Below are positions 6,597 through 53,330 of a stretch of DNA of 64,000 nt, piece after piece. The notes under the pieces are model-generated. The model saw only the letters and a program-made list of their open reading frames with translations, was not told where the DNA came from and ran no database searches. The stretch's first letter is position 1; each line of letters opens with the position of its first letter. Position numbers and translations under genes: made by a program. The stretch comes from Octopus vulgaris (lineage: Eukaryota), in NCBI GenBank assembly GCA_951406725.2, contig OX597829.1, positions 31,558,001 to 31,622,000 of the forward strand. The letters are read 5' to 3'.

Positions 6597-7059
6597 TTTC
6601 ATAGAATGCCTTAGAACAAATATTTCTGACTGCTACCACAGCCATACATCTCAACACGAAGAATATTTGTAGATTTCCATTAAAACGTTTGCTAGATAGA
6701 CAAAATATATTTGTGACATATTTGTTTAGGACCAGTAACAAAGTAAAGGATAAACTGTTGTGGAGGTAATCTACCGTTTAGATGTGAACATTACATGCAA
6801 AAATCAGTTAGAAAAAAGACATTAGAAGTCAATTTCTTTGAAACTTGTAATGTTTCCATCCAGAACCAGAAGTTACATTAAGTTACTTATTATTTTAGTA
6901 TTAACTTTAGAAATGTGGTGTTTCCTAACAATGAAAGGAATGGGACATCTCAGAAAATTCTATCTCAAAGTGTACAGTAAATATACAGCAACGTCTAGTA
7001 ATATAAGTAAATGAAAGAGAATATTTTAAATCAAAAATATTAAACAGGAGAAAAACTTT

Positions 7060-13800: not shown

Positions 13801-14412
13801 CTATGTATCATGTGATTGTGTTCCTTATTCCGACTGCTAGTATCAGGAATTACTTTAATGGCCATGTTAATACTGTCGACATATCGATAGTCCAGTACAG
13901 CAGCTGTGTTTGTAGCAGCTAATGTTTGTCTTAATTGTCTTTCCAACCACATTACACAAAGATTTGACATTTCCAGCAGTTTCAAACCCGACAGCACCGC
14001 CTTTCATCTGTTTAAAAAATGTGTTATAGAATTTTAATGTGATTTTTTCTAATGTGGCTTTAAAGCTGATAAAAATACTTGCATAATTGTGCTTTGTTAC
14101 TGTTATTGTGAACGGCGCTGGGTTGGTTAATTTCAACCACTTGGTATTTACTGTTACGTATAAAGACCCCTGGAGGTCTTTTCAACATCTAGTGTAGAGC
14201 AGGTAAGACATAAATTCCCCAGGTTATGTCGAGGTAAGTGTTTCTTAGTAAAGGTTAAGGTCAAAGATGGACCCAGTTAATCAACATCAGTACTATGGAC
14301 TATCTCTTTACTTTCTCCGGGTCCACATATTTGTCAATATCAAAATTGGCATCACTAATTTGAAAGAGTGCCCGTAATCAAGTGGTTAGGACATTGGATT
14401 CAAATTCTAGAC

Positions 14413-14578
14413 CAGGAGAGGCATTATGTCCAAGAGAGGCATTATGTCCAAGAGAGGCATTATGTCCAAGAGAGGCATTATGTCCAAGAGAGGCATTATG
14501 TCCAAGAGAGGCATTATGTCCAAGAGAGGCATTATGTCCAAGAGAGGCATTATGTCCAAGAGAGGCATTATGTCCAGG
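14413..14578. repeat. 18-bp minisatellite x9 inside a degenerate SINE
   Basis: Unit CCAAGAGAGGCATTATGT repeated nearly perfectly; flanks resemble a tRNA-SINE head (AGTGGTTAGGACATTGG...TTCAAATTC) and body (GAGCAAGG..CTTCATTTC.CGTTG.TCCAGT). Confidence 0.9.
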
Positions 14579-16245
14579 AGCAAGGTGCTTCATTTCCCGT
14601 TGATCCAGTCCATCCTGCTAAAACTGAATACCGGTTTAGTCCTGATGCAGCGCTTTCTCCCTCTAACTGTCATTTCTTCTATCTTTCGTTGGGTCAAATG
14701 TCGGGAATGTTAAGGTATTTCAAATAAATACAGAAAGCACAGCACGTATTACCAAGTCATACTCGCTCGCAAGTGACGGCTGTGCTTATGGTCGCTGCCT
14801 TTAATATAGTTGGGAGATAATCCTCAGAGTTACATTCATTCATCCTCCTAAAGAGGTTCTCCTTGCTAATGCATGCAGCTGTATGCATGAGCAAGGAGAA
14901 CCTCAACTACCTCAGAACATACTATGTTTGCTGTTGTTAGCATTGCCAGTAACACAGACAACAACATGGTTTGTGGCCGATCCAGTTACACAATATGTCA
15001 GAGTTTTATGATCCTACAAAAGCCATACAGAGACGACTTCGTTAGTATTTGCCTGGAAATTATTTACTGTCCAATTTGACTGCTATTCCATGCAACTCGA
15101 GCTGTCAAGTAATTTTTTTTGCGTTGTACCATACAAGCCTACTTATTACTACCGTTGTTGTTGTTGTTTCTGCTGTTGTTGTTTCAGCTGTTGCTGTTGC
15201 TGTTGGTGTTGTTGTTGCTGCTGCTGCTCTTCCTCCTCCTTCCCCTCCCCCTGCTGTGGTTCTTTAACCTAAGTCAACTCTTACTAAAGAGACCTTTGAT
15301 AAATGCATTCGAACCATGACCATTCCGTACGTTTAGAAGTATGTCTCGGATCACATTTCCCAATGCAGTAGGGTACGATTCGGCGGAGGGGTATTTAGCT
15401 GTTATTTCTAGCAGATAGATCGACAATATAGCAGCGTTGTCACTATCTTGTGTTCCCATCGTACTACCATAGTAGCTCAGAGTGATTGTTCACTAAAATC
15501 AGATACTCATCGTTTGATGAATCATAAGAATTGATAAATGAGTAAATGTCCAACCACAGTTTTTGTTAACTTTAAACGTATGAATGGTAAACACTCATCC
15601 ATTACATGGATGCCACACCTGCACAAATTGATTAGTAGTACTGACGATCTTACTTTTACCATAGCAAGACGAACCACACCAGCAACAAATAAGTATGTTT
15701 ACCATAAAGACAGCGCAAAACCGGAGGTAGATTAGGAAATCTTGACTCGCGAGGCTGACAATACAGTTAACTCTGCCGCTATCTGTATCAAAATAACACC
15801 CTGTTGAAACTGAATAAACTTACAAAAAAATTTTCCAGTTCAAGGAATGATCGTACAGGGCTAGAAATGGGGTAACGTAAGACTAAAACGTAGAGATATA
15901 GTAGAAACTGTAATAATTATGAAAGTTGTAGTAGAGTTGTAGGAAGAGTGTAATAATTGGGTAAATGGTAGTGGGGGAGCAGAAACAGGGCAGCTTCAAA
16001 CGAAATACTGTTCAGCACTTAGTTCTGTCTTTTGTGTTCTACACTCGAATTTTGATGCAGACCATTTGACCACTCAGCTTGCTAAGGTCAAAGAAATATA
16101 TACAAGTATGCACCGTGACCGTTTCAATGACCCATCCACGTTTCTACAAATGAATTGCTTCTTGTATCTGCAAAGGAATAGACATGAATAATTAATTTCC
16201 CGGTTTCTTTATAGAAAAAAAAATTAATTGAATTAAAATGGGTGC

Positions 16246-30010: not shown

Positions 30011-30644
30011 TAATATCTAGGCTGTATATACAAATATAAATGTTGCTTTAAGCATCAATTTAAATCGTTATGTCTTAAAATAAAACTTTATAAATCGAAA
30101 TTAGGGTCTACATATTTTTGCCAATAAGAAACACATCTATTTACGCAGATACTAGAAAATTGGTATTTGTTACCTTATTTCTTGTTTTGACGTCAGCTTT
30201 TTAAATAAAATGGTGTAATATATTACACCATTCAAATTTTTACTCCTTCAAATTTTTGTCTATTATTATCTTATCAGTTTCATCCACGTCAAACTATTTA
30301 TATGTGTTGTTCTGTTCTAATTCTCTGGTTTCACTGTCTAGATAAATATAATATTCTCTCGGTCATAATTAGTTTGCCTCTCCTAGTATCTCTGATACAT
30401 TTACGTAATCATATACGTATTTTTATATTCAAGTCTGTATTCTAATTCATTGAATGCTATTGTTAGATTCATGTGAACTGGGAAGATATTTCAAGCAGAA
30501 GTTACAATTTTCTTGCAGCTTTTAACATGTTGCTGAATTTCTTGTTAACTATGGTGGACCATGTTTGCGATGCTAATGTATTTTTTTCAAATTTTCCTTA
30601 TCTGATCTGTTTTGGTCTTTGATCCAGCTGAATTTTGAAGACTC

Positions 30645-30702
30645 TATACATACATACATACATATATACATACATACATACATACATACATACATACATA
30701 CA

Positions 30703-30737
<35 letters not shown>

Positions 30738-30946
30738 GTACATATATACATACATACATACATACTTACAACATACATACATACATACATACATACATAC
30801 ATACATACATACATAAATACATACATACATACATACATACATACATACATACATACATGCATACATACATACATACATACATACATACATACATACATAC
30901 ATACATACATACATACATACATACATACATACATACATACATACAT
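30645..30946. repeat. (CATA)n microsatellite
   Basis: Directly visible. Confidence 0.95.
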
Positions 30947-33135
30947 CACAGCAGAACAAGCAGCTGGGAAGAAGGGTGTCTGGAGATGTGCCGAGCAATT
31001 TTTTAATCAACAAAACTGTGATATCAGAAGTGCGACAGCATAAGAGGAACCTAGTTTCAATGTGGCTAGACGGCAAGAAAGTCTTTAACTCTGTTCCACA
31101 CTCATGGATGCTAGAAGCTCTTCAACTTTCTAAAGTTCCAGTGAGCATAGTCAAAGCCATAGCTGACCTGACTTCATCGTGGGCCACCATCTTGAAATTA
31201 AACAAAAAAGAGTGACTATATAAATCACTGATGAGATACAGTATCGCGAGAATGTATATTCTGTTTATACTATCTGTAAACCTCTTGTCATTCATATTAA
31301 GGAAGTTTTGAAGGATATCTCACTGGTTCACAAGGAAACAGAAATAACAAAATTACAAACTGTTTCTTTGTGAGTGTCTCGAAACTTTATGCAAAGAATA
31401 AGCACGAGATGAAAAAGAGTCTTGATCTGTTTACAACATTCTCAAAGGATGTAGGGTTGGAGTTTGGTCATGATAAATGTTATATGGTTGTGAAAAGGCG
31501 GTAAACTGTAAACCAGAATAGCAACAGTTAAGTCATCAATGACTTGACTGTTTCCCCTATATCTGATGAGGAATGTTACAGGTATCTAGGGGTGGATGAA
31601 AACATATCTTGCAAAGGCACCAGTAACAAAACTCGTGTCACTAAAGAATATTACAGCTGAATAAAGAAAATTTGGACCTCACAACTATCCGCATTCAATA
31701 AAATAGTGGCCCACAATGTGTTTGCAGTGTCAGTACTCATTCCAATATTTGGGCTGCTTGATTTGACGCTTGCTGAGATCCGAGCCATTGATGTGAAAAC
31801 CCGGAAAATACTAACACGTACTCATAATTTGCACATAAACAGTGACGTAGACCGCGTCTACCTAAAATAAAAACAAGGCGGCAGAGGCTTAACATCGCTC
31901 CAAACTGCCTTTGAATGTTGTAACATACCCCTTCGGCAGCCTCTTTTAGCCACCAGGTGTCGAAGTGCATCCCTTGACCAAGTTTGAATACATGAGGCTG
32001 ATAACATCATAAGACTTGGAAGGCAGCTCATTGAACAGCATTCTTTGTCTGATAACCTTAAATACATACCCAAAGAAGTCGCACGACTTTACCGCAACGT
32101 ATCATCAGTTGAAAGGATAAGCGTGTATGAGCAAAAGATCATGCATGGATATGTTAATAGAAAGCTCCGAGATGAATTTAACATTGATCATCAAAGAAGG
32201 TTATCATGGACCAATAACCGGATTACTACCTCCCACTTTGAAGAGTGTGCATTTGCAATCCAGGAACAGGAAATATCAACCAAATACCTGACGCACAAAA
32301 GGGATAGAGATACAAGAAAAGCAGTAAAATGTGACAACCGATGCAGACTTTGTGGCGTTAACACCGAAGATGTCACCATATCTTAAGCAGTTGTCCGAAA
32401 ATATCATCAGCCGATGAGATATGATGTTGTAACTAGGACACTCTATAATGAAATCCGTCGGAAGAATAACCCTGAGGACAACGAAATAAGAACCTACAGA
32501 ACTGGAATGTCCCAGTGAAAGTCTCAATAAAATGTAAGCTCAACAGACCTGATATAACGATTTGGGATTAAGAAGAGAAACTGCGTACAGTTGTGGAAAT
32601 TAGATGTCCAGTGGATGTTATCATAAAGCTAAAGATCAGTAAAAAAGAGAACACCTATGCTGAACTATTGAGAAATCTGCAGTTGCTCTATCCAGATTAC
32701 AAGTTCACGTTTATACCTGTAATTAATGGGGTCCTGCGATATGTAGCACTCTGCCTAAATACCAATCTTGAGAAACTAGGCTTCTCAAAACCAGAAAGAA
32801 GAAAGCTAATTCGAAGACTACAGATCCAATCCATCACTGGAACTGTAAAAATCTGTAAAACTTTCCAGATTTTCATGTTTTAAATATATACGAGCATGTC
32901 CAGATATGCAACTATATCCATGAGAATACATACATAAAACATACAAATCTGCACATACATACATACATACATGCATGCATGCATACATACATACATACAT
33001 ACATACATACATACATACATACATACATACATACATACATACATACAAAAATACCCTGTTGTTGATGTTGAAATTCCAGTGAAGGAGCCTTAGATCTAGG
33101 TTTGAAACCGGCTCTTTTTCTATTGACAAGAAATC
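30947..33135 (+). mobile_element. 5'-truncated, degenerate R4/Dong-like LINE (RT + CCHC + restriction-like endonuclease)
   Basis: RT motifs EQAAGKKG..C.EQ.LIN, WLD.KK.FNSVPHSW; CRLC...EDVTHILSSC; RPDITIWD, VEI.CP, K..TYAEL; many stops and frameshifts; extension past the (CATA)n to ~33135 is tentative. Confidence 0.85.
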
Positions 33136-33140
33136 ATCAC

Positions 33141-33350
33141 GAAAATCCTGCGAATCAGAGTTCCGCGTGCCCGTTCGTCGGGCAGTTGTGCTACAACTGC
33201 CCGACGAACGGGCACGTGAACCTCTGATTAGCAGGATTTTTCATAATGTTTTTGTAGCTTTAATTTTAAAAAAAAGATTGTCACTGTACCTTCGGTATTC
33301 AAGTACTATTTTGTACCACCATGCTTTGCATTTATATGCTTACTCGTGTA
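33141..33350 (+). mobile_element. Fold-back Penelope-like pLTR remnant with degenerate HHR
   Basis: Arms 33141-33189/33193-33242; CTGC-CCGACGA-ACG ggca CGT-GAAC-CTCTGAT-TA-GCAG; 3' tail similar to 49680-49760; ends in (TA)n. Confidence 0.7.
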
Positions 33351-33352
33351 TG

Positions 33353-33402
<50 letters not shown>

Positions 33403-33520
33403 ACAAGATAAGGGCAGAAGAAAAATTCTAATGCCAGATACGCCGAAACAAAAAATTGTTGATAACCATTAAATTTATGCGTCTCGAAACAAACCGATAG
33501 AAATCTCTAAAAAATTCGTT

Positions 33521-33584
33521 ATTACCGTATTGGTCCAATTTCGGGGTTAATTCACAAGAAATTTTCCCCTCTTCAGCGGCAAAT
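33521..33584 (-). ncRNA. Type-I hammerhead ribozyme (inverted copy)
   Basis: Reverse complement of the motif at 34188-34250. Confidence 0.8.
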
Positions 33585-34187
33585 ACGCGAGATATAAATG
33601 AAATACTTACTCATACTCACGGAAAAAGCAAGCACTAAGTCCCGAGCAGACTTAAGTACCCCAAATATATCCAAAATAGAAAAATCTTCGGCGCACCTCG
33701 AGACACGTGTGATTCTAACTAGAGACTTTCACAGAGTGATAGAATCCGGAAGTGAAACACTAATCTATTTATAATTAATATACGGTAATAACGAATTTTT
33801 TAGAGATTTCTATCGGTTTGTTTCGAGATGCATAAATTTAATGGTTAACGACAATTTTTTGTTTCGGCGTATCTGGCATTAGAATTTTTCTTCTGCCTTT
33901 ATCTTGTAAATTATGTATTTTACCTTTAAAGGCATCTTTTGATATGCTGGCCATTGATAAAAATTTTTTCACGAAAAAAATTTTATCCTATATTAATTAT
34001 AAATAGATTAGTGTTTCACTTCCGGATTCTGTCACTCTGTGAAAGTCTCTAGTTAGAATCACACGTGTCTCGAGGTGCGCCGAAGATTTTTCTATTTTGG
34101 ATATATTTGGGGTACTTAAGTCTGCTCAGGACTTGGTGCTTGCTTTTTCCATGAGTATGAGTAAGTATTTCATTTATATCTCGCGTA

Positions 34188-34250
34188 TTTGCCGCTGAAG
34201 AGGGGAAATTTTCTTGTGAATTAACCCCGAAATTGGACCAATACGGTAAT
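34188..34250 (+). ncRNA. Type-I hammerhead ribozyme
   Basis: TTGCCG-CTGAAGA-GGGG..CCCC-GAAA-TTGG a CCAA-TA^-CGGTAA: canonical core, 6-bp stem I, 4-bp GC stem II, near-palindromic stem III with 1-nt loop. Confidence 0.85.
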
Positions 34251-34484
34251 AACGAATTTTTTTAGAGATTTCTATCGGTTTGTTTCGAGACGCATAAATT
34301 TAATGGTTATCGACAATTTTTTGTTTCGGCGTATCTGGCATTAGAATTTTTCTTCTGCCCTTATCTTGTAAATTATGTATAAATTTTACCTTTAAAGGCA
34401 TTTTTTGATATGCTGGCCATTGATAAAAAATTTTTCCCGAAAAAATTTTATCCTATATTAATTATATATATATATAAGTGTAAA

Positions 34485-34788
34485 ATCCCCTTCCGTCATG
34501 AAAGTTCCTCTCCGAGGCACAAGTCCTGGCAAGGTTGTTTATGGAAGACCAACAACCGTCCATGCATGCCAGCCTCCTGTCTCCATGCCACCGATGTTAT
34601 CCAAGGGAAAGGCAATGGCCGATACAACTTGGCACCAGTGGCGTCGCAACTTATTTCTACAGCTGAGTGAACTGGAGCAAAGTAAAATAAAGTATCTTGC
34701 TCAAGAACACAACACAAAGCCCAATCCAGGAATCGAACTCACTACCTCAATGATTGTGAGCCCGATACTCGAACCACTGAGTCATTCG

Positions 34789-34790
<2 letters not shown>
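34485..34790 (-). mobile_element. SINE family C
   Basis: Matches 44950-45278 (GGCAAGGTTGTTTATGGAAGACC, TTTCTACAGCTGAGTGAACTGGAGCAA, CTTGCTCAAGAACACAAC). Confidence 0.8.
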
Positions 34791-36864: not shown

Positions 36865-37722
36865 GCTTAGCGGTACTTCGTCTGCCGTTACGTTCTGAGT
36901 TCAAATTCCGCCGAGGTCGACTTTGCCTTTCATCCTTTCAGGGTCGATAAATAAAGTACCAATTATGCACTGGGGAAAACAATAAGGTGGCGAGCTGGCA
37001 GAAGCGTTCGTTCACTGGGCGAAATGCTAAGCGGTATTTCGTCTGCCGTTACGTTCTGAGTTCAAATTCCGCCGAGGTTGACTTTGCCTTTCATCCTTTC
37101 GGGGTCGATAAATTAAGTACTAGTTATGCACTGGGGTCGATATAATCGCCTTAATTCCTTTGTCTGACCTTGTTTGTCCCCTCTATGTTTAGCCCCTTGT
37201 GGGCAATAAAGAAATAAGAAATGAAAAATAACAATAGCCATCTTATTTTTTTCTCGGCTCCAAGAGATTGGAAGGTAGTTGATGTAGTAGCTTTATAAAA
37301 GCAAAGGCGGCGAGCTGGCTGAAACGTTAGCACGCCGGGCGAAATGGTAAGCGGTATTTCGTCTGCGTTACGTTGTGAGTTCAAATTCCGCCGAGGTCGA
37401 CTTTGCCTTTCATCCTTTCGGGGTCGATAAATTAAGTACCAGTTACGCACTGGGGTTGATGTAATCGACTTAATACCTATGTCTGTCCTTGTTTGTCCCC
37501 TCTGTGTTTAGCCCCTTGTGGGTAATAAAGAAATAGGTATTTTGTCTGTCGCTACGTTCTGAGTTCAAATTCCGCCGAGGTCGACTTTGCCTTTCATCCT
37601 TTCGGGGTCGATAAGTTAAGTACTAGTTATGCACTGGGGTCGATATAATCGCCTTAATCCCTTTCTCTGTCCTTGTTTGTCCCCTCCATGTTTAGCCCCT
37701 TGTGGGCAATAAAGAAATAAGA
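36865..37722 (+). mobile_element. Cluster of SINE family B monomers
   Basis: Four copies of CGTTCTGAGTTCAAATTCCGCCGAGGTCGACTTTGCCTTTCATCCTTTC.GGGTCGATAA; heads AAGG(T/C)GGCGAGCTGGC at ~36984 and ~37304. Confidence 0.9.
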
Positions 37723-41902: not shown

Positions 41903-42474
41903 TGTAAAGTATTATAGCCATCTCGATATGGATAACCACAAAGGGTGGTGTTACTGTAGCTTTTTAGCCCCAGGAGATCATCGTCTCCAGCTGGCTTTAG
42001 GCACACTATCTGTGCCCTTATGGTATTTGCAAAGGGAGACCATTACTGTAGCTTTTTAGTCCCAGGAGATCATCGTCTCCAGCTGGCTTTAGGCACACTA
42101 ACTGTGCTCTTATGGTATTTGCAAAGGGAGACCATTACTGTAGCTTTTTAGCCCCAGGAAATCATCGTCTCCAGCTGGCTTTAGGCACACTATCTGTGCC
42201 CTTATGGTATTTGCAAAGGGAGACCATTACTGTAGCTTTTTAGCCCCAGGAGATCATCGTCTCCAGCTGGCTTTAGGCACACTATCTGTGCCCTTATGGT
42301 ATTTGCAAAGGGAGGCCTTACGAGTAAGGGATGGCCTCCCTTTGCAAATACCATAAGGGCACAGATAGTGTGCCTAAAGCCAGCTGGAGACGATGATCTC
42401 CTGGGGCTAAAAAGCCACAGTAACACACCCCTCCTTTGTGGTTAGCCATATCGAGATGGCTATAATACTTAACA
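41903..42474. mobile_element. Fold-back element with 92-bp unit x4 in the left arm
   Basis: Termini TGTAAAGTATTATAGCCATCTCGATATGG / CCATATCGAGATGGCTATAATACTTAACA; units start at 41951, 42043, 42135 and 42227; one inverted unit after the spacer at ~42318-42332. Confidence 0.85.
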
Positions 42475-43243: not shown

Positions 43244-44476
43244 GATAGATAAGTTTCTTTATTGGCCACACAGGGCTGCACACAGATGGGACAAGTTACA
43301 AGGTAGAGCTTTTCTTTTGGGGGATGAAAAAAACAAAAAAACAAAAAACAAAAGAAACAAAAAAAAGGTGGCGTAGGTTTTCGATCAAAAGGGATCGTAA
43401 AAGGGAAAGAAAGAACAAAAAAGAAAAAAAAAGAAAGAAAAAGAAAAAAAAGAAGAAAAAGAAAAGGAACAAAAGAAAAGAGAAATGAAAAAAAAGAAGA
43501 AAAAAGGGGGAAGAGGGGAAAAAAACGATCAATAGGGATCGCGTATCACAGTGTTATGATGTATGGTGTAAAGGGGAAAGCAAGTAAGGTTTATCCGTGG
43601 GAAGAAAAGCCTACGAAAAAGACCACGGTAACCTTGGTCAATATTGTTATTTGTTACCACATTTGTTTGCAAGTGGGTAACCCTCTGTTTTCAATTTCTG
43701 GGTTCATAGGATTATGCTCAAGGTGGCTTCGTCATTCATACGTGCCATCCTTGCTACATTCACCCATCTTTTTTAAAACATTCGCTAGACAAAACTTGCC
43801 TCTCTACTCTCACTTTCCTTTTCAAGTGGTACTTGAAGAAGTTGATGAGAGATTGACCAGAGAGGAAAGTGTTTGTCTCCAATCTTTTCAGACGCGTCCA
43901 CCAGATACATTCTTTCGCCATAGCCACAAGGATGATGAAAATAGCTCTTCCTTCCCGTTTGAAGGAAGGAGGCGTGACAATATTGACGATAGACTCAGCT
44001 GATAAACCGACTCGTCCCACACGTGACAGCAGTTGTTCGACATAAGCCCACAGGTCGGAGATTGTTGGACACAGCACGAGTGCGTGCAGAACGGTTTCGT
44101 CGCTCTGACCGCATCTCGGGCAGGTCGGCCCCGTGTTTCTCGAGCCGTGTCTGTAGAGCTTATCCCGAACGGGTAGCGCTTCTCGGTAGCACCGCCAGGC
44201 CAGGGATCTCTGGAAGTTGTCTATGGGCCCTGGCCCGAAAGTCGTCCCGAACAGGCGGGTCAGGTACTCCTCGTCGACGTCCAGGTTCGCCCCGAGCTCG
44301 TCGTCGTACCTCCCCTCCACTAATCCCCTATAGAATGCTTTGGTTGTGATGAAGTCCCTCAAGGTCGACCCAGGACGGCAGAGTTGCTTGAGAGCAACGC
44401 GACACTCGCGGTGCCATTCGCCCTTCCTCGGCCTCTTTTTGATCCACGACTGCAGTTCGGTCATGGAGACGATTAT
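43244..44476 (-). mobile_element. Tx1/L1-like LINE 3' fragment (zf-RVT region plus 3' UTR)
   Basis: FQRSLAWRCYREALPVRDKLYRHG...CPRCGQSDETVLHALVLCP..W; AATAAA followed by an (ATCT)n tail; the other end abuts (GATA)n. Confidence 0.85.
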
Positions 44477-44680
44477 AGATAGATAGATGGAGATGATGAT
44501 AGATAGATAGATAGATAGATAGATAGACAGATAGATAGATTGACAGGTAGACAGACAGATAGATAGATTGACAGGTAGACAGACAGATAGATAGACAGGT
44601 AGACAGACAGATAGATAGATTGACAGGTAGACAGACAGATAGATAGACAGGTAGACAGACAGACAAACAAACAAACAGAC

Positions 44681-44733
<53 letters not shown>
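44477..44733. repeat. (GATA)n/(GACA)n compound microsatellite with ~28-bp higher-order unit
   Basis: GACAGGTAGACAGACAGATAGATAGATT recurs. Confidence 0.9.
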
Positions 44734-44734
<1 letters not shown>

Positions 44735-44812
44735 AACTTACTTGGAAAAGGATGCGTGGCATTCGATCATGAAATATATATATATATAAATGTGTGTGTG
44801 TGTGTGTGTGTG

Positions 44813-45435: not shown

Positions 45436-46561
45436 TATGTTACGAAAAGAAAATATAAAATACACGTGGAAATGTAAGGGTAAAATATGAAAAATCAACG
45501 AAAATGCATATTGCAGATAGAAAAAGGCTATTTATGAAAGGTATTGACAAATATATACAAAGATTATGGAAAAATAGCCGAAATACTAAACAAGACTTAA
45601 AAATACTCCCGTACATCTCTACACATAACCCCAGAAACAACGAAGCCTTCAACATCATCACCCAAAACCTCCCCATCCTCACAGCAGACAAAACAATGAA
45701 CGAAATTTTAAGCCCATATAAAATTATAAAAAGCAAAAAGCAACCGAAGTCACTGAAAAGAATACTAACCAGTGCTAGACTTTACCCACTAACTGCTGAG
45801 CCAAAAGTGACAAAATGTGGACGTTCTAACTGTGGAACATGCCCCCACCTTCTGGAGGGTTCAGAATTCCAATTCAAACAAGGAGAAATATTTAAGATCA
45901 AATCAAATTTCACCTGCGCCTCAGTAAATGTAATCTATGTCATGACATGCATAGGATGTGGTAAACTCTATATTGGACAAACAGGAATTTTGCTCCGTCA
46001 AAGAATCACCATTCACAAAGAGCAAATCCGTCACCCACAATACAGACAGTTAAAGGTGGGTGAACACATAGAAAGATGTGCCAGGAATCTTATTCCCAAT
46101 TTCCAAATATTTCCCTTTTACCAATGCTCACAGAACACCACAATGCAACAAAGGTTGAATAAAGAGTCATTTTTCATCAACAAATTTCTCCCCCAACAAA
46201 ATATGAACACACAACTCAATACAGAACACCACTAACTCTACAATTTAAACCACTAAACCCTATACACTTTCTACATCACTCACATCTCTAATTCCAGAAC
46301 TACTTACCTCCCTTAGAAATAATCTCTTTTCTCAGGAACTATTAGACCTGACACCGTTTATTAACCGGTGTTGTTCAAACGATGAATAGCCCACGCGCAA
46401 ACCAATTGGTTCGTTTTGGTCTCTTACTCATAATAATGACCTTTATGACTCGTATTACTACCTCAGTCAATCTAAATGTATATATTTGTCACTACCTGTC
46501 ATAAATAGCCTTTTTCTATCTGCAATATGCATTTTCGTTGATTTTTTTATATTTTACCCCT
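45430..46561 (+). mobile_element. 5'-truncated Penelope-like element with inverted pLTR piece
   Basis: GIY-YIG ORF; 45478-45567 is the reverse complement of 46469-46561; (TA)n on both sides; degenerate HHR-like motif at 46376-46418 (palindromic ACCAATTGGT). Confidence 0.9.
45504..46235 (+). CDS. Penelope-like GIY-YIG endonuclease C-terminal fragment (N-terminal ~25 aa derive from the inverted pLTR)
   Basis: KCGRSNCGTCPHL zinc-knuckle linker, FTC.S.NVIYVMTC.GCGKLYIGQTG..LRQRI.IH, H, E..FI. Confidence 0.85.
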   Translation: MHIADRKRLFMKGIDKYIQRLWKNSRNTKQDLKILPYISTHNPRNNEAFNIITQNLPILTADKTMNEILSPYKIIKSKKQPKSLKRILTSARLYPLTAEPKVTKCGRSNCGTCPHLLEGSEFQFKQGEIFKIKSNFTCASVNVIYVMTCIGCGKLYIGQTGILLRQRITIHKEQIRHPQYRQLKVGEHIERCARNLIPNFQIFPFYQCSQNTTMQQRLNKESFFINKFLPQQNMNTQLNTEHH

Positions 46562-51117: not shown

Positions 51118-53330
51118 TGATGGTCGTCCACTCGTGACCGAGGAAGACCATTGCCGACCTTCAGGAACATTGTGCGCTCTAGGACTGACTTATATTTTGC
51201 ATTTGCGGCTCCGTTGGTGGCTAATGAGTCCTGCTCTTGACAAGCACAAACGACTGCAAACATTGCAGACCAAGCTTTCCCCATTCACTATACGAGCCGT
51301 GCGCTTTCGCACAGCTCGCCTAAGTTCTTCATGCTGGATACGTGCTCTCTCAAAAGTGTCGATCCCCTCTTTAACCTGCTTCCTCCATCTGTGGCGATGA
51401 CAGGCATTGTTCTCCCAGTCAGTGTCCTGCATATCAAAGGCCTTTAACGAGGACTTGACACAGTCCTTAAATCGCAGCCTTGGTTTCTGCCGGAGTCTCC
51501 TTCCATTCACAAGTTCTCCATAGAGCATCTGCTTAGAAATCCTTCTATCCTCCATTCTAATAAGGTGTCCAGTCCAACACAACCGGTGCTTGTGTACCAT
51601 CGCCTCAATACTCAAGATATCAGCTGTCCTCAGGATCTGTGTGTCTGGAATTTTTGAGGTCCAGCCAACATTGAGAATGTGTCTGAGACATCTCTGATGT
51701 AAACGTTCAAGGACCCTTACCTGACGTTTGTACAGAGTCAATGTCTCACATGAGTATAGAAGCACTGTCAGTACACAAGCACGGTACACAACAACTTTTG
51801 TTCTCCTTGAGATGCCATGTTGGGACCAGACACGAGACTGAAGAGACCGGAAGGAATTTGTTGCTCTCTGCAACCTGAAAGATATTTCCTCATCCAGGGA
51901 GCAAGAACGGCTGAGTGTGCTGCCCAGGTAGACAAACTTGTCTACTACCTTCAGAATTGTTCCTTCGACCAAGATAGCTGGTTCTATATATGGATTTCCT
52001 GGTGCAGGCTGGAACATTACAACAGTCTTGTCCAGGCTAATGCTGAGTCCAAATGCCCTGCAAGAAGCAGAAATGCAATTCATGAGTATTTGCATGTCAT
52101 CCACTGTATGAGTAACTAAGTCACAGTCATCTGCATAAAGGAGGTCACGAATAATAGACTGGGAAACCTTTGAATTGGCAGCAAATCGGCGAAGATTAAA
52201 GAGGCGGCCAGAAGATCGATATCTGACATATATTCCCAGAGAGCTAACCTTAGTAAAAGCATGAGTAAAAGTAGCGGCAAAATACAAAGAAAAGAGAGTT
52301 GGGGCAAGGATGTCACCCTGCTTAACACCATTCTCTACAGGAATGGGTCCTGCCATGGCACCACCAACATTGACCCAAGCCTCCATCCCATCATGGAATG
52401 ATTTAATTATAGATACAAAGTGATCCGGACATCCAAGTTTGCCAAGTATTTTCCATAGAAAGGCCCTATTTACAGTATCAAAGGCCTTAGTTAAATCAAT
52501 GAATAGCTGGACAAGATCCATATTCTGCTCATAGCACTTCTCCTGCATCTGTCTTGCTGTGAAAATCATATCCATTGTCCCTCTACCAGATCGGAAGCCA
52601 CATTGAGATTCAGATAGGACATAATTTACGAGACACCCATTCAGACGGGTAAGAAGAATATTTGCCAGAACCTTTCCAGCAGCTGATAGTAGAGCAATAC
52701 CTCTGTAGTTACCACACATTGTTCTGGCTCCTTTTTCTTTATATAGAGGAAGAATAATTGCATCCTTCCAGTCCTTAGAGATTGCACCATCCCTCCAGTT
52801 CATGAAGGGACTGTGTGATGCAATTACCACCAAATCGCAAGACCTCAGCACAAATTCCATCCTTTCCAGGTGCCCTACCAAGATTCAATTTACTTATTGA
52901 TGTCATTACTTCATGTATTGATGGCGATGAGTCTAAGGAGTCAATGATAGGTCTTTGTTTCATAGTATCAATCACTGTTTCATCCACAACTGACTCATGG
53001 TTTATGAGTTCAGAGAAGTGTTCGATCCAGCGACCTGTGATTTCTGTTGATTTAGTAAACAGAGTGGAAGACTCCTTGGAAAGCAAAGGAGCTGATGTGG
53101 AGCTCTTAGGTCCATAAGCTCGCTTCATAAGATGGTAAAGCTTCTTGCTGTCATTTGCATCAGCAGCAGCCTGAACATCACGAGCAAGATCCTCCCACTA
53201 AGTGTTCTGCATCTTCCTGAGAGATCGCTGCAGTAGTGATTTTACACTGTTATAGTGGGCAAGTGCTAGACTTCGCTGCACAGTAGACAGTTCTCTGTGC
53301 AGCAACACACTGTGGGCATGGCGCTTCACC
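51118..53330 (-). mobile_element. 5'-truncated RTE-clade (BovB-like) LINE
   Basis: RT ORF plus upstream remnants; short 3' UTR; (TATG)n on both sides. Confidence 0.92.
51190..52790 (-). CDS. RTE reverse transcriptase and C-terminal zinc finger (open part of a disrupted ORF)
   Basis: NYRGIALLS, ESQCGFR..RGT.DMIF, FIDLTKAFDTV, GVKQG..LAP.LF, LLYADD, F.YLGS, CNVCSRLC.SRAGLISHQRS; upstream frame 52775-53128 (RAPGKDGI.AE) is joined by a deletion or frameshift. Confidence 0.9.

Follow-up and report, generated by a model that had tools for sequence, protein, structure and literature searches.

Architecture of the locus

The window analysed here is the whole 64,000-nt stretch of Octopus vulgaris DNA, within which a short insertion reads, from left to right, as a (TA)n tract, an inverted arm, a direct arm and a second (TA)n tract, with a complete type I hammerhead on each arm. 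Its features are as follows, in window positions.

33349..33395, no strand: left (TA)n target tract, read from the sequence and from a TRF array at 33349-33398
33396..33782, minus strand: inverted arm of 387 nt, which covers the unit from about position 207, includes the ribozyme and ends at 3' end site A (AATTAT, position 132), where it is joined to (TA)n
33522..33582, minus strand: type I hammerhead of the inverted arm, predicted cut between 33528 and 33527
33780..33782, no strand: head-to-head junction with a 3-nt ATA microhomology, abutting the cut site by chance
33783..34243, plus strand: one cut-to-cut unit, 461 nt here and about 465 nt in the family, including only the 3' half of the upstream ribozyme
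34189..34249, plus strand: type I hammerhead of the direct arm, with a 6-bp stem I, CUGAAGA, stem II GGGG/CCCC, GAAA, a short near-palindromic stem III and a predicted UA cut after 34243
34244..34465, plus strand: partial second unit of 222 nt, ending at 3' end site B (AATTAT, 34460-34465)
34377..34465, plus strand: "tail", the 89 nt (90 in the family) that separate the putative reverse transcription start sites A (34376) and B (34465), a concept taken from PMC11167929
34466..34476, no strand: short right (TA)n target tract, read from the sequence

The direct arm (33780 or 33783 to 34465) consists of one 461-nt unit and 222 nt of the next, with a spacing of 461. Its repeats are 94% identical over 234 columns, and the inverted and direct arms are 96% identical over 415 columns. 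The first-pass annotation had described an ORF-less 461-bp unit present as about 1.5 direct copies plus an inverted copy of about 385 bp within (TA)n, and this layout was confirmed, with an inverted arm of 387 nt. The 3' end and the start of the inverted copy had also been placed at one AT-rich point; the AT-rich motif is indeed shared, but the base is not, the start of the inverted arm lying about 10 nt ahead of the 3' end point. No ORF longer than 70 aa, read stop to stop, lies wholly inside the element, and no RT plus GIY-YIG ORF of an autonomous Penelope-like element (PLE) was found in the element or joined to the unit in 200 unit records. Since the 5' half of the upstream ribozyme is missing from the direct arm, a unit would not be released from the window copy by two cuts in cis, and at least two complete ribozymes in tandem are not present in it. 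The window copy is probably a daughter, dead-end and decayed, rather than a source locus.

Other repeats surround the element. Just left of the TA tract, at 33142-33240, there is a near-perfect, GC-rich, MITE-like palindrome of about 100 bp, and directly right of the element, at 34477-34790, a very high-copy repeat, far deeper than the unit in contigs and also seen in locus L195, which we take to be SINE-like. Decayed non-LTR retrotransposon fragments, including a 132-aa piece with no Pfam match, occupy 30573-32890 and end before a (TACA)n tract. On the minus strand, a frame with zf-RVT (43760-44737) and a 564-aa LINE RT frame (51190-52884) were observed, and tandem arrays occur at 37353-37719 (184-nt period), 41951-42321 (92 nt) and 14412-14580 (18 nt).

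The hammerhead ribozyme

On the plus strand, CUGAAGA at 34195 and GAAA at 34229 are followed by the predicted cut after 34243, and the CUGANGA, GAAA and UH core elements are found in type I order with stems I to III. An Rfam search gave no hammerhead match at the gathering score or at E values up to 10; therefore, the ribozyme call rests on motif, pairing and covariation, all of which agree with the canonical type I hammerhead (CUGAAGA/GAAA/UA) annotated earlier. The computed active fold has an energy of -11.3 kcal/mol against a minimum of -12.4 kcal/mol, a gap of 1.1 kcal/mol, and the isolated ribozyme region folds no better than its shuffles (z 0.12).

The covariation set comprised 16 hand-picked rows from two or three lineages, which were chosen by core motif, so that the core is invariant by virtue of this choice. 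Compensatory changes across related families were found in all three stems, with 5 of 13 pairs changed on both sides, a number reached in 49 of 500 shuffles, and 98% of 208 cells are paired across the 16 rows, compared with 32-46% in slid controls. In an older 475-nt relative, which is 76% identical, both sides of pairs are altered in stems I, II and III. These comparisons support a real hammerhead that appears to be under selection, and its maintenance by compensatory change in a non-coding unit suggests that cleavage is needed for spread. In vitro cleavage failed for eight of nine predicted Xenopus elements, according to a preprint (bioRxiv 10.64898/2026.07.22.740005).

Copy number and family unit

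The family comprises hundreds to thousands of copies. A 22-mer of the unit has 461 exact matches in the genome (control 0), 2,022 places in the 2.8-Gb genome match a degenerate pattern for the ribozyme clan (control 0), and the unit search yielded 2,723 candidates. The copies in the window had been called near-identical; the actual values are 94-96%, and the best other copy among the 40 scored candidates is 94% identical. Mapping was performed on 160 locus records, 30 selected for matching the full unit, 70 taken on three contigs from the list of 22-mer hits, and 60 selected on positions 4-68. These records, a small part of all copies and mostly with flanks of 1.5-2 kb, gave 236 segments, 232 after filters, and 230 arms in 126 loci once one duplicated locus was dropped. 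Two records, L012 and L026 (C1, 11 kb apart), hold one insertion with identical junctions twice, a local segmental duplication.

The majority unit is about 465 nt. As the second copy at the window locus and many family members carry 4 nt that are missing from the 461-nt window unit, the length of 461 nt annotated earlier is correct for the window copy, but the unit of the family is about 465 nt. Copies differ from the majority sequence by 2.2% at unmasked sites, and their earlier description as young is relative, as they are older than the wave of PLEs with 99-100% identical pLTR pairs described below. Arms longer than one unit account for 24 of 168, the longest measuring 1140 nt, in agreement with the earlier suggestion of more than one round of copying. 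At least two complete ribozymes in tandem occur in 12 of 230 arms, in a sample enriched for long arms, and also in L247. The linear window unit has a fold z of -4.65, with 0 of 100 shuffles as good; the circular fold of the majority unit (z -2.4, 2 of 60 shuffles as good) is weaker than that of the linear window copy.

A non-coding unit of a few hundred nucleotides, with a type I hammerhead and no LTR, corresponds to a retrozyme. Judged by these sequence features, the element classes as a non-LTR retrozyme, that is, a non-autonomous PLE, and the retrozyme-like, non-coding family proposed in the first-pass annotation from an ORF-less unit with a hammerhead and tandem copies is upheld. No published description of this family was found in searches of the literature, and it may already be catalogued in supplements or repeat databases.

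Several rearranged or unrelated loci were observed during mapping. In L058, L064, L066 and L031, arm-internal deletions lie between short direct repeats, which suggests RT slippage on the template. In L007 (1960-3253), a probable DNA transposon, 1.3 kb long and with inverted ends, has split an arm, and a 669-bp palindrome of 99.6% identity adjoins a relative of the unit in L244 (1521-2189). Other hammerhead elements, unrelated to the unit and in or beside (TA)n, were found in L169 (90-574), which is a two-armed palindrome, in L204 (3272-3865 and near 6706), which repeats at about 450 nt, and in L168 (near 45). Several retrozyme-like families thus coexist in the genome.

Ends and junctions of the arms

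The 3' ends fall at two AATTAT motifs 90 nt apart: among 232 arms, 93 end at site A (position 132), 103 at site B (222) and 36 elsewhere. The 87 head-to-head pairs include 61 A+B, 2 B+B, no A+A and 24 with an unclassed end. A+B is therefore found in 61 of the 63 classifiable two-armed insertions (p 4e-16), where the 61 include the window locus and one duplicated locus. The window locus itself fits the rule, with its inverted arm ending at A and its direct arm at B. That the two arms end at two different fixed sites is the informative feature, and it was missed by the first-pass annotation. The 475-nt relatives (30 loci, counted by eye) gave 9 A+B pairs and no like pairs, and further subfamilies (10 loci with 2.5-kb flanks), one of them with a 497-nt unit, have a similar end pattern. 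No published count of such a near-strict A+B rule was found; a "tail at one end" is its qualitative form.

A TA tract follows 138 of 196 terminal arms, in keeping with the Penelope-type integration primed at (TA)n that had been proposed for the locus, and target duplications of 12-14 nt flank four non-TA insertions. Both the AT-rich or microsatellite target with target duplication and the combination of a partial tandem, an inverted 5'-truncated arm and a tail at one end are Penelope-like characters.

At the window locus, the 3-nt overlap of the arms ends exactly at the upstream cut position, and the direct arm can be read as starting there. The first-pass annotation had the first direct copy begin at the predicted cleavage site; the position stands, within the 3-nt ATA overlap, but the significance attached to it does not. 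Over all arms, 5' junctions at the cut site number 4.3 against 4.5 expected, ranking 199 among 465 windows, and 123 arms cross the site against 4 that stop. Under stricter entry rules and with the window locus excluded, 4.1 were observed against 4.4 expected, and stops amount to 4 of 124 passes (95% interval 0.9-8.1%). Therefore, the position of the window junction at the cut site is best taken as chance microhomology, and the 5' junctions of the sampled copies, for which clustering at the cut had been suggested as a check, are dispersed instead, an outcome that the first-pass annotation had itself named as refuting its reading. As most head-to-head junctions carry a few-base overlap or filler, the 3-nt overlap at the window locus is ordinary.

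Apparent hot spots of 5' ends at the entry to stem II (11.9 vs 5.3) and at unit positions 369-375 (10 vs 2.8) were lost on scan correction, 32 of 300 simulations being as extreme; a further peak at unit positions 46-60 appeared in the first scan, before any such correction.

Penelope-like elements of the genome

The search for GIY-YIG matches gave 6,136 candidates, and many of the 150 scored lie in 781-aa frames, which are intact and contain RT and GIY-YIG domains (Pfam). These PLEs appear Neptune-like, having a cysteine linker of the Neptune/Nematis type with a motif as given in PMC8557442. They sit in (TA)n, their direct and inverted pLTRs are 99-100% identical, and their 3' ends are two, 40 nt apart, with A+B in both of the two-armed loci ending in TA. 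No canonical hammerhead was detected in the pLTR of the abundant PLE by the descriptor used. The enzyme class serving the unit would be PLE, as the insertion signature suggests, and the exact partner may be an older family.

Loci L191-L198 (e.g., L194:768-4468) belong to a PLE family that is very young. Intact 781-aa frames are numerous in it, and they are overlapped by an upstream frame of up to 479 aa, for which Pfam gave no clear match. The pLTR of this family has repeated CCAAT- and CRE-like motifs followed by a TATA-like box, and no canonical hammerhead was found in it. Within the window, a 258-aa frame at 45459-46235 on the plus strand, with a cysteine linker and a GIY-YIG domain, is a 3' PLE fragment lying 11 kb from the element. 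L240 was considered as a unit running into a PLE ORF and was rejected, since a (TATC)n tract lies between the two.

Proposed RNA template and mechanism of insertion

We consider it likely that the unit is a non-autonomous hammerhead retroelement of the non-LTR retrozyme type, mobilised in trans by an endonuclease-positive PLE, and that the window locus is a dead-end daughter. Priming from two ends in the PLE manner is very likely. In the proposed sequence of events, rare source loci with two complete ribozymes would be transcribed, and the RNA would be cut at both and ligated into a circle of about 465 nt. The end structure suggests that (TA)n, or AT-rich DNA of another kind, would then be cut twice, in staggered positions, by a PLE RT/GIY-YIG protein. 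Going by the genomic pattern, cDNA from one DNA end starts at the internal site B and cDNA from the other end at site A, which lies 90 nt further upstream; each start coincides with an AAUUAU motif able to pair with a TA end. In the same pattern, each cDNA extends for a variable distance that is unrelated to the other's, the cut site being no barrier and at times being traversed repeatedly, and the cDNA ends are finally joined via a few bases of microhomology or filler to give a head-to-head insertion.

Within two-ended priming, we lean towards a ligated circular RNA of about 465 nt as the template. The share of rare alleles in common is 21% between tandem repeats (53 pairs) and 17% and 11% between opposite arms (83 and 24 pairs), compared with 1.3% between loci, and at 7 polymorphic sites the agreement within an insertion is 86/90, 107/112 and 28/28 against 61%. 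Cut-site crossings numbered 159, one of them with a deletion, and no insertion above 10% is listed at the cut site. One monomer copied round and round would explain this allele sharing, the scarless crossing of the cut site and the conservation of the ribozyme most simply; the sharing of rare alleles could also come from local gene conversion or homology-guided jumps. Contigs from three runs guessed to be RNA and one unlabelled run, which are blind to ends, strand and circles, span portions of the unit; some of them run across the cut site, and others stop at a variable base 2 nt beyond it. It may also be, as a tentative extension of the circular template, that one circular ribozyme RNA is copied from both ends of cut (TA)n by an asymmetric PLE dimer, with one subunit at A and the other at B.

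The same two-ended PLE insertion could instead use a linear, uncleaved RNA read through tandem source loci, with the uniformity of insertions arising by homology-guided jumps or gene conversion and the ribozyme acting at another step; we regard this as possible but doubtful. Unprocessed RNA predominates as the substrate of an anole PLE in vitro (PMC11167929), the lack of cut-site stops is as compatible with uncleaved RNA as with a circle, few arms are longer than two units, and a comparison of gene conversion with template inheritance did not tell the two apart (Fisher p 0.24). However, a linear template should accumulate register-specific alleles, and none distinguishing upstream from terminal units was seen at the 5 variable sites tested. 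The compensatory ribozyme changes suggest that spread depends on cleavage, and with an equal ribozyme in each unit, such transcripts would be reduced to monomers.

With regard to the inverted arm, it has been proposed for Penelope palindromic junctions that one cDNA, or else an antisense template, folds back and primes itself (PMC3846280). Such an origin would also account for the sharing of alleles between arms, and the 5' ends lie within 25 nt of each other in 12 of 47 pairs against 7.4 by permutation (p 0.049), yet we find it improbable here. The A arm reaches further upstream in 30 of the 61 A+B pairs, the B arm in 25, and the two are level in 6; in those 30 pairs the A arm is also without the tail, and neither arm contains the other, which rules out fold-back as the general origin of the inverted arm. 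Arm lengths are likewise unrelated (Spearman -0.07, n = 47). As the extents of the arms are independent, simple fold-back of one cDNA is excluded, and both arms would have been copied from RNA.

Still less probable is a reading of the unit as nothing more than a coding Penelope element's pLTR, with truncated pLTR fragments as its copies. The architecture does match that of PLE pLTRs, PLE fragments lie near the unit at 6 places in 200 locus records and in L192, and the records cover a small part of the copies. Nevertheless, head-to-tail runs of the unit, up to 2.4 units long, contain no coding insert, and at all 7 places inspected the PLE is set apart by a microsatellite or oppositely oriented, as expected of separate insertions. 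Among 50 GIY-YIG locus records, a small sample relative to the genome, no pLTR is similar to the unit, and no coding PLE was found joined to it in the 200 unit records. Thus, the outcome that the first-pass annotation had named as contradicting its own reading, a unit that is always simply the pLTR of a coding Penelope element, was not seen in this sample.

The earlier interpretation, in which ribozyme-cleaved linear RNA is the main template and RT run-off at the cleavage site leaves the junction as its mark, is the least credible and is already largely refuted by the stop and crossing counts given above, although the window locus and four others have junctions compatible with the cut site.

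Comparison with known systems

Non-LTR retrozymes, their circles and their proposed link with PLEs have been reported previously (PMC7229834, PMC4209133, bioRxiv 10.64898/2026.07.22.740005). Like the octopus unit, those of metazoans are non-coding and low in GC, with a canonical type I hammerhead and head-to-tail repeats, and both they and the octopus family have target duplications of more than 4 bp and occur in genomes that also contain PLEs (Cervera and de la Pena 2020, PMC7229834; Li et al. 2026, bioRxiv 10.64898/2026.07.22.740005). The octopus unit of 465-497 nt exceeds the circles of 170-400 nt shown in the former and lies within the range of 51-972 bp given in the latter. A junction analysis is provided here for the octopus family, whereas none appears in the available text of those two reports. 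The octopus copies, known here from genomic DNA, differ in being dispersed, mostly under one unit in length and two-armed, with no long array in the sample.

The standard PLE insertion has a partial tandem, an inverted 5'-truncated copy, a one-sided tail and a (TA)n bias (PMC8557442, PMC3846280). Endonuclease-positive PLEs of the Neptune/Naiad type (Craig et al. 2021, PMC8557442; Arkhipova et al. 2013, PMC3846280) have this layout, the tail at one end and the (TA)n bias in common with the octopus family, as well as microhomology at 5' junctions. Target duplications are of comparable size, 8-10 bp as reported for them and 12-14 here. Their tails are 30-40 nt compared with 90, and the octopus unit, unlike them, has no ORF. 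Further, it has no sequence similarity to the coding PLEs sampled in the same genome.

In LINE-1 twin priming, both target ends prime cDNA, the inverted 5' part is joined by microhomology, and the two parts cover different stretches of one RNA. In contrast, the octopus arms have sequence in common, and their starting points are fixed and internal.

In the in vitro system of Poseidon PAc from the green anole (Frangieh et al. 2024, PMC11167929), the tail is delimited by a pair of internal RT start sites, and both target strands are cut and extended. According to that study, hammerhead cleavage is not needed in this sole in vitro PLE system, and unprocessed RNA serves as the substrate. Both Poseidon PAc and the octopus family use AT-rich targets and show no pile-up of ends at the hammerhead cut. 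However, the Poseidon PAc start sites are AC-rich, non-homologous to the target and not strand-specific, whereas both octopus sites are AAUUAU motifs with the capacity to pair with TA, and the same site is hardly ever used by both target ends.

Taken together, the insertion works like that of a PLE, of a kind already known; the family is a further member, and the window locus is ordinary for it. The first-pass annotation was right on the class of the element and wrong on its junction. The formation of tandem plus inverted PLE insertions is called open in PMC8557442, and retrozyme circles as RT templates for PLEs are proposed rather than shown in PMC7229834 and in bioRxiv 10.64898/2026.07.22.740005, the latter of which concerns mainly vertebrates. 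With its short substrate that encodes no protein, its two mapped start sites, the near-strict A+B rule and a candidate enzyme present intact in its genome, the octopus family makes both the formation of PLE insertions and the role of the circle as a template directly testable. If the tentative reading of an asymmetric dimer on one circular RNA is true, it would explain the PLE inverted repeat and the one-sided tail in a single step and would constitute genomic evidence for retrozyme circles as templates of reverse transcription; in that case, the partner may share no sequence with the unit and may carry no hammerhead itself.
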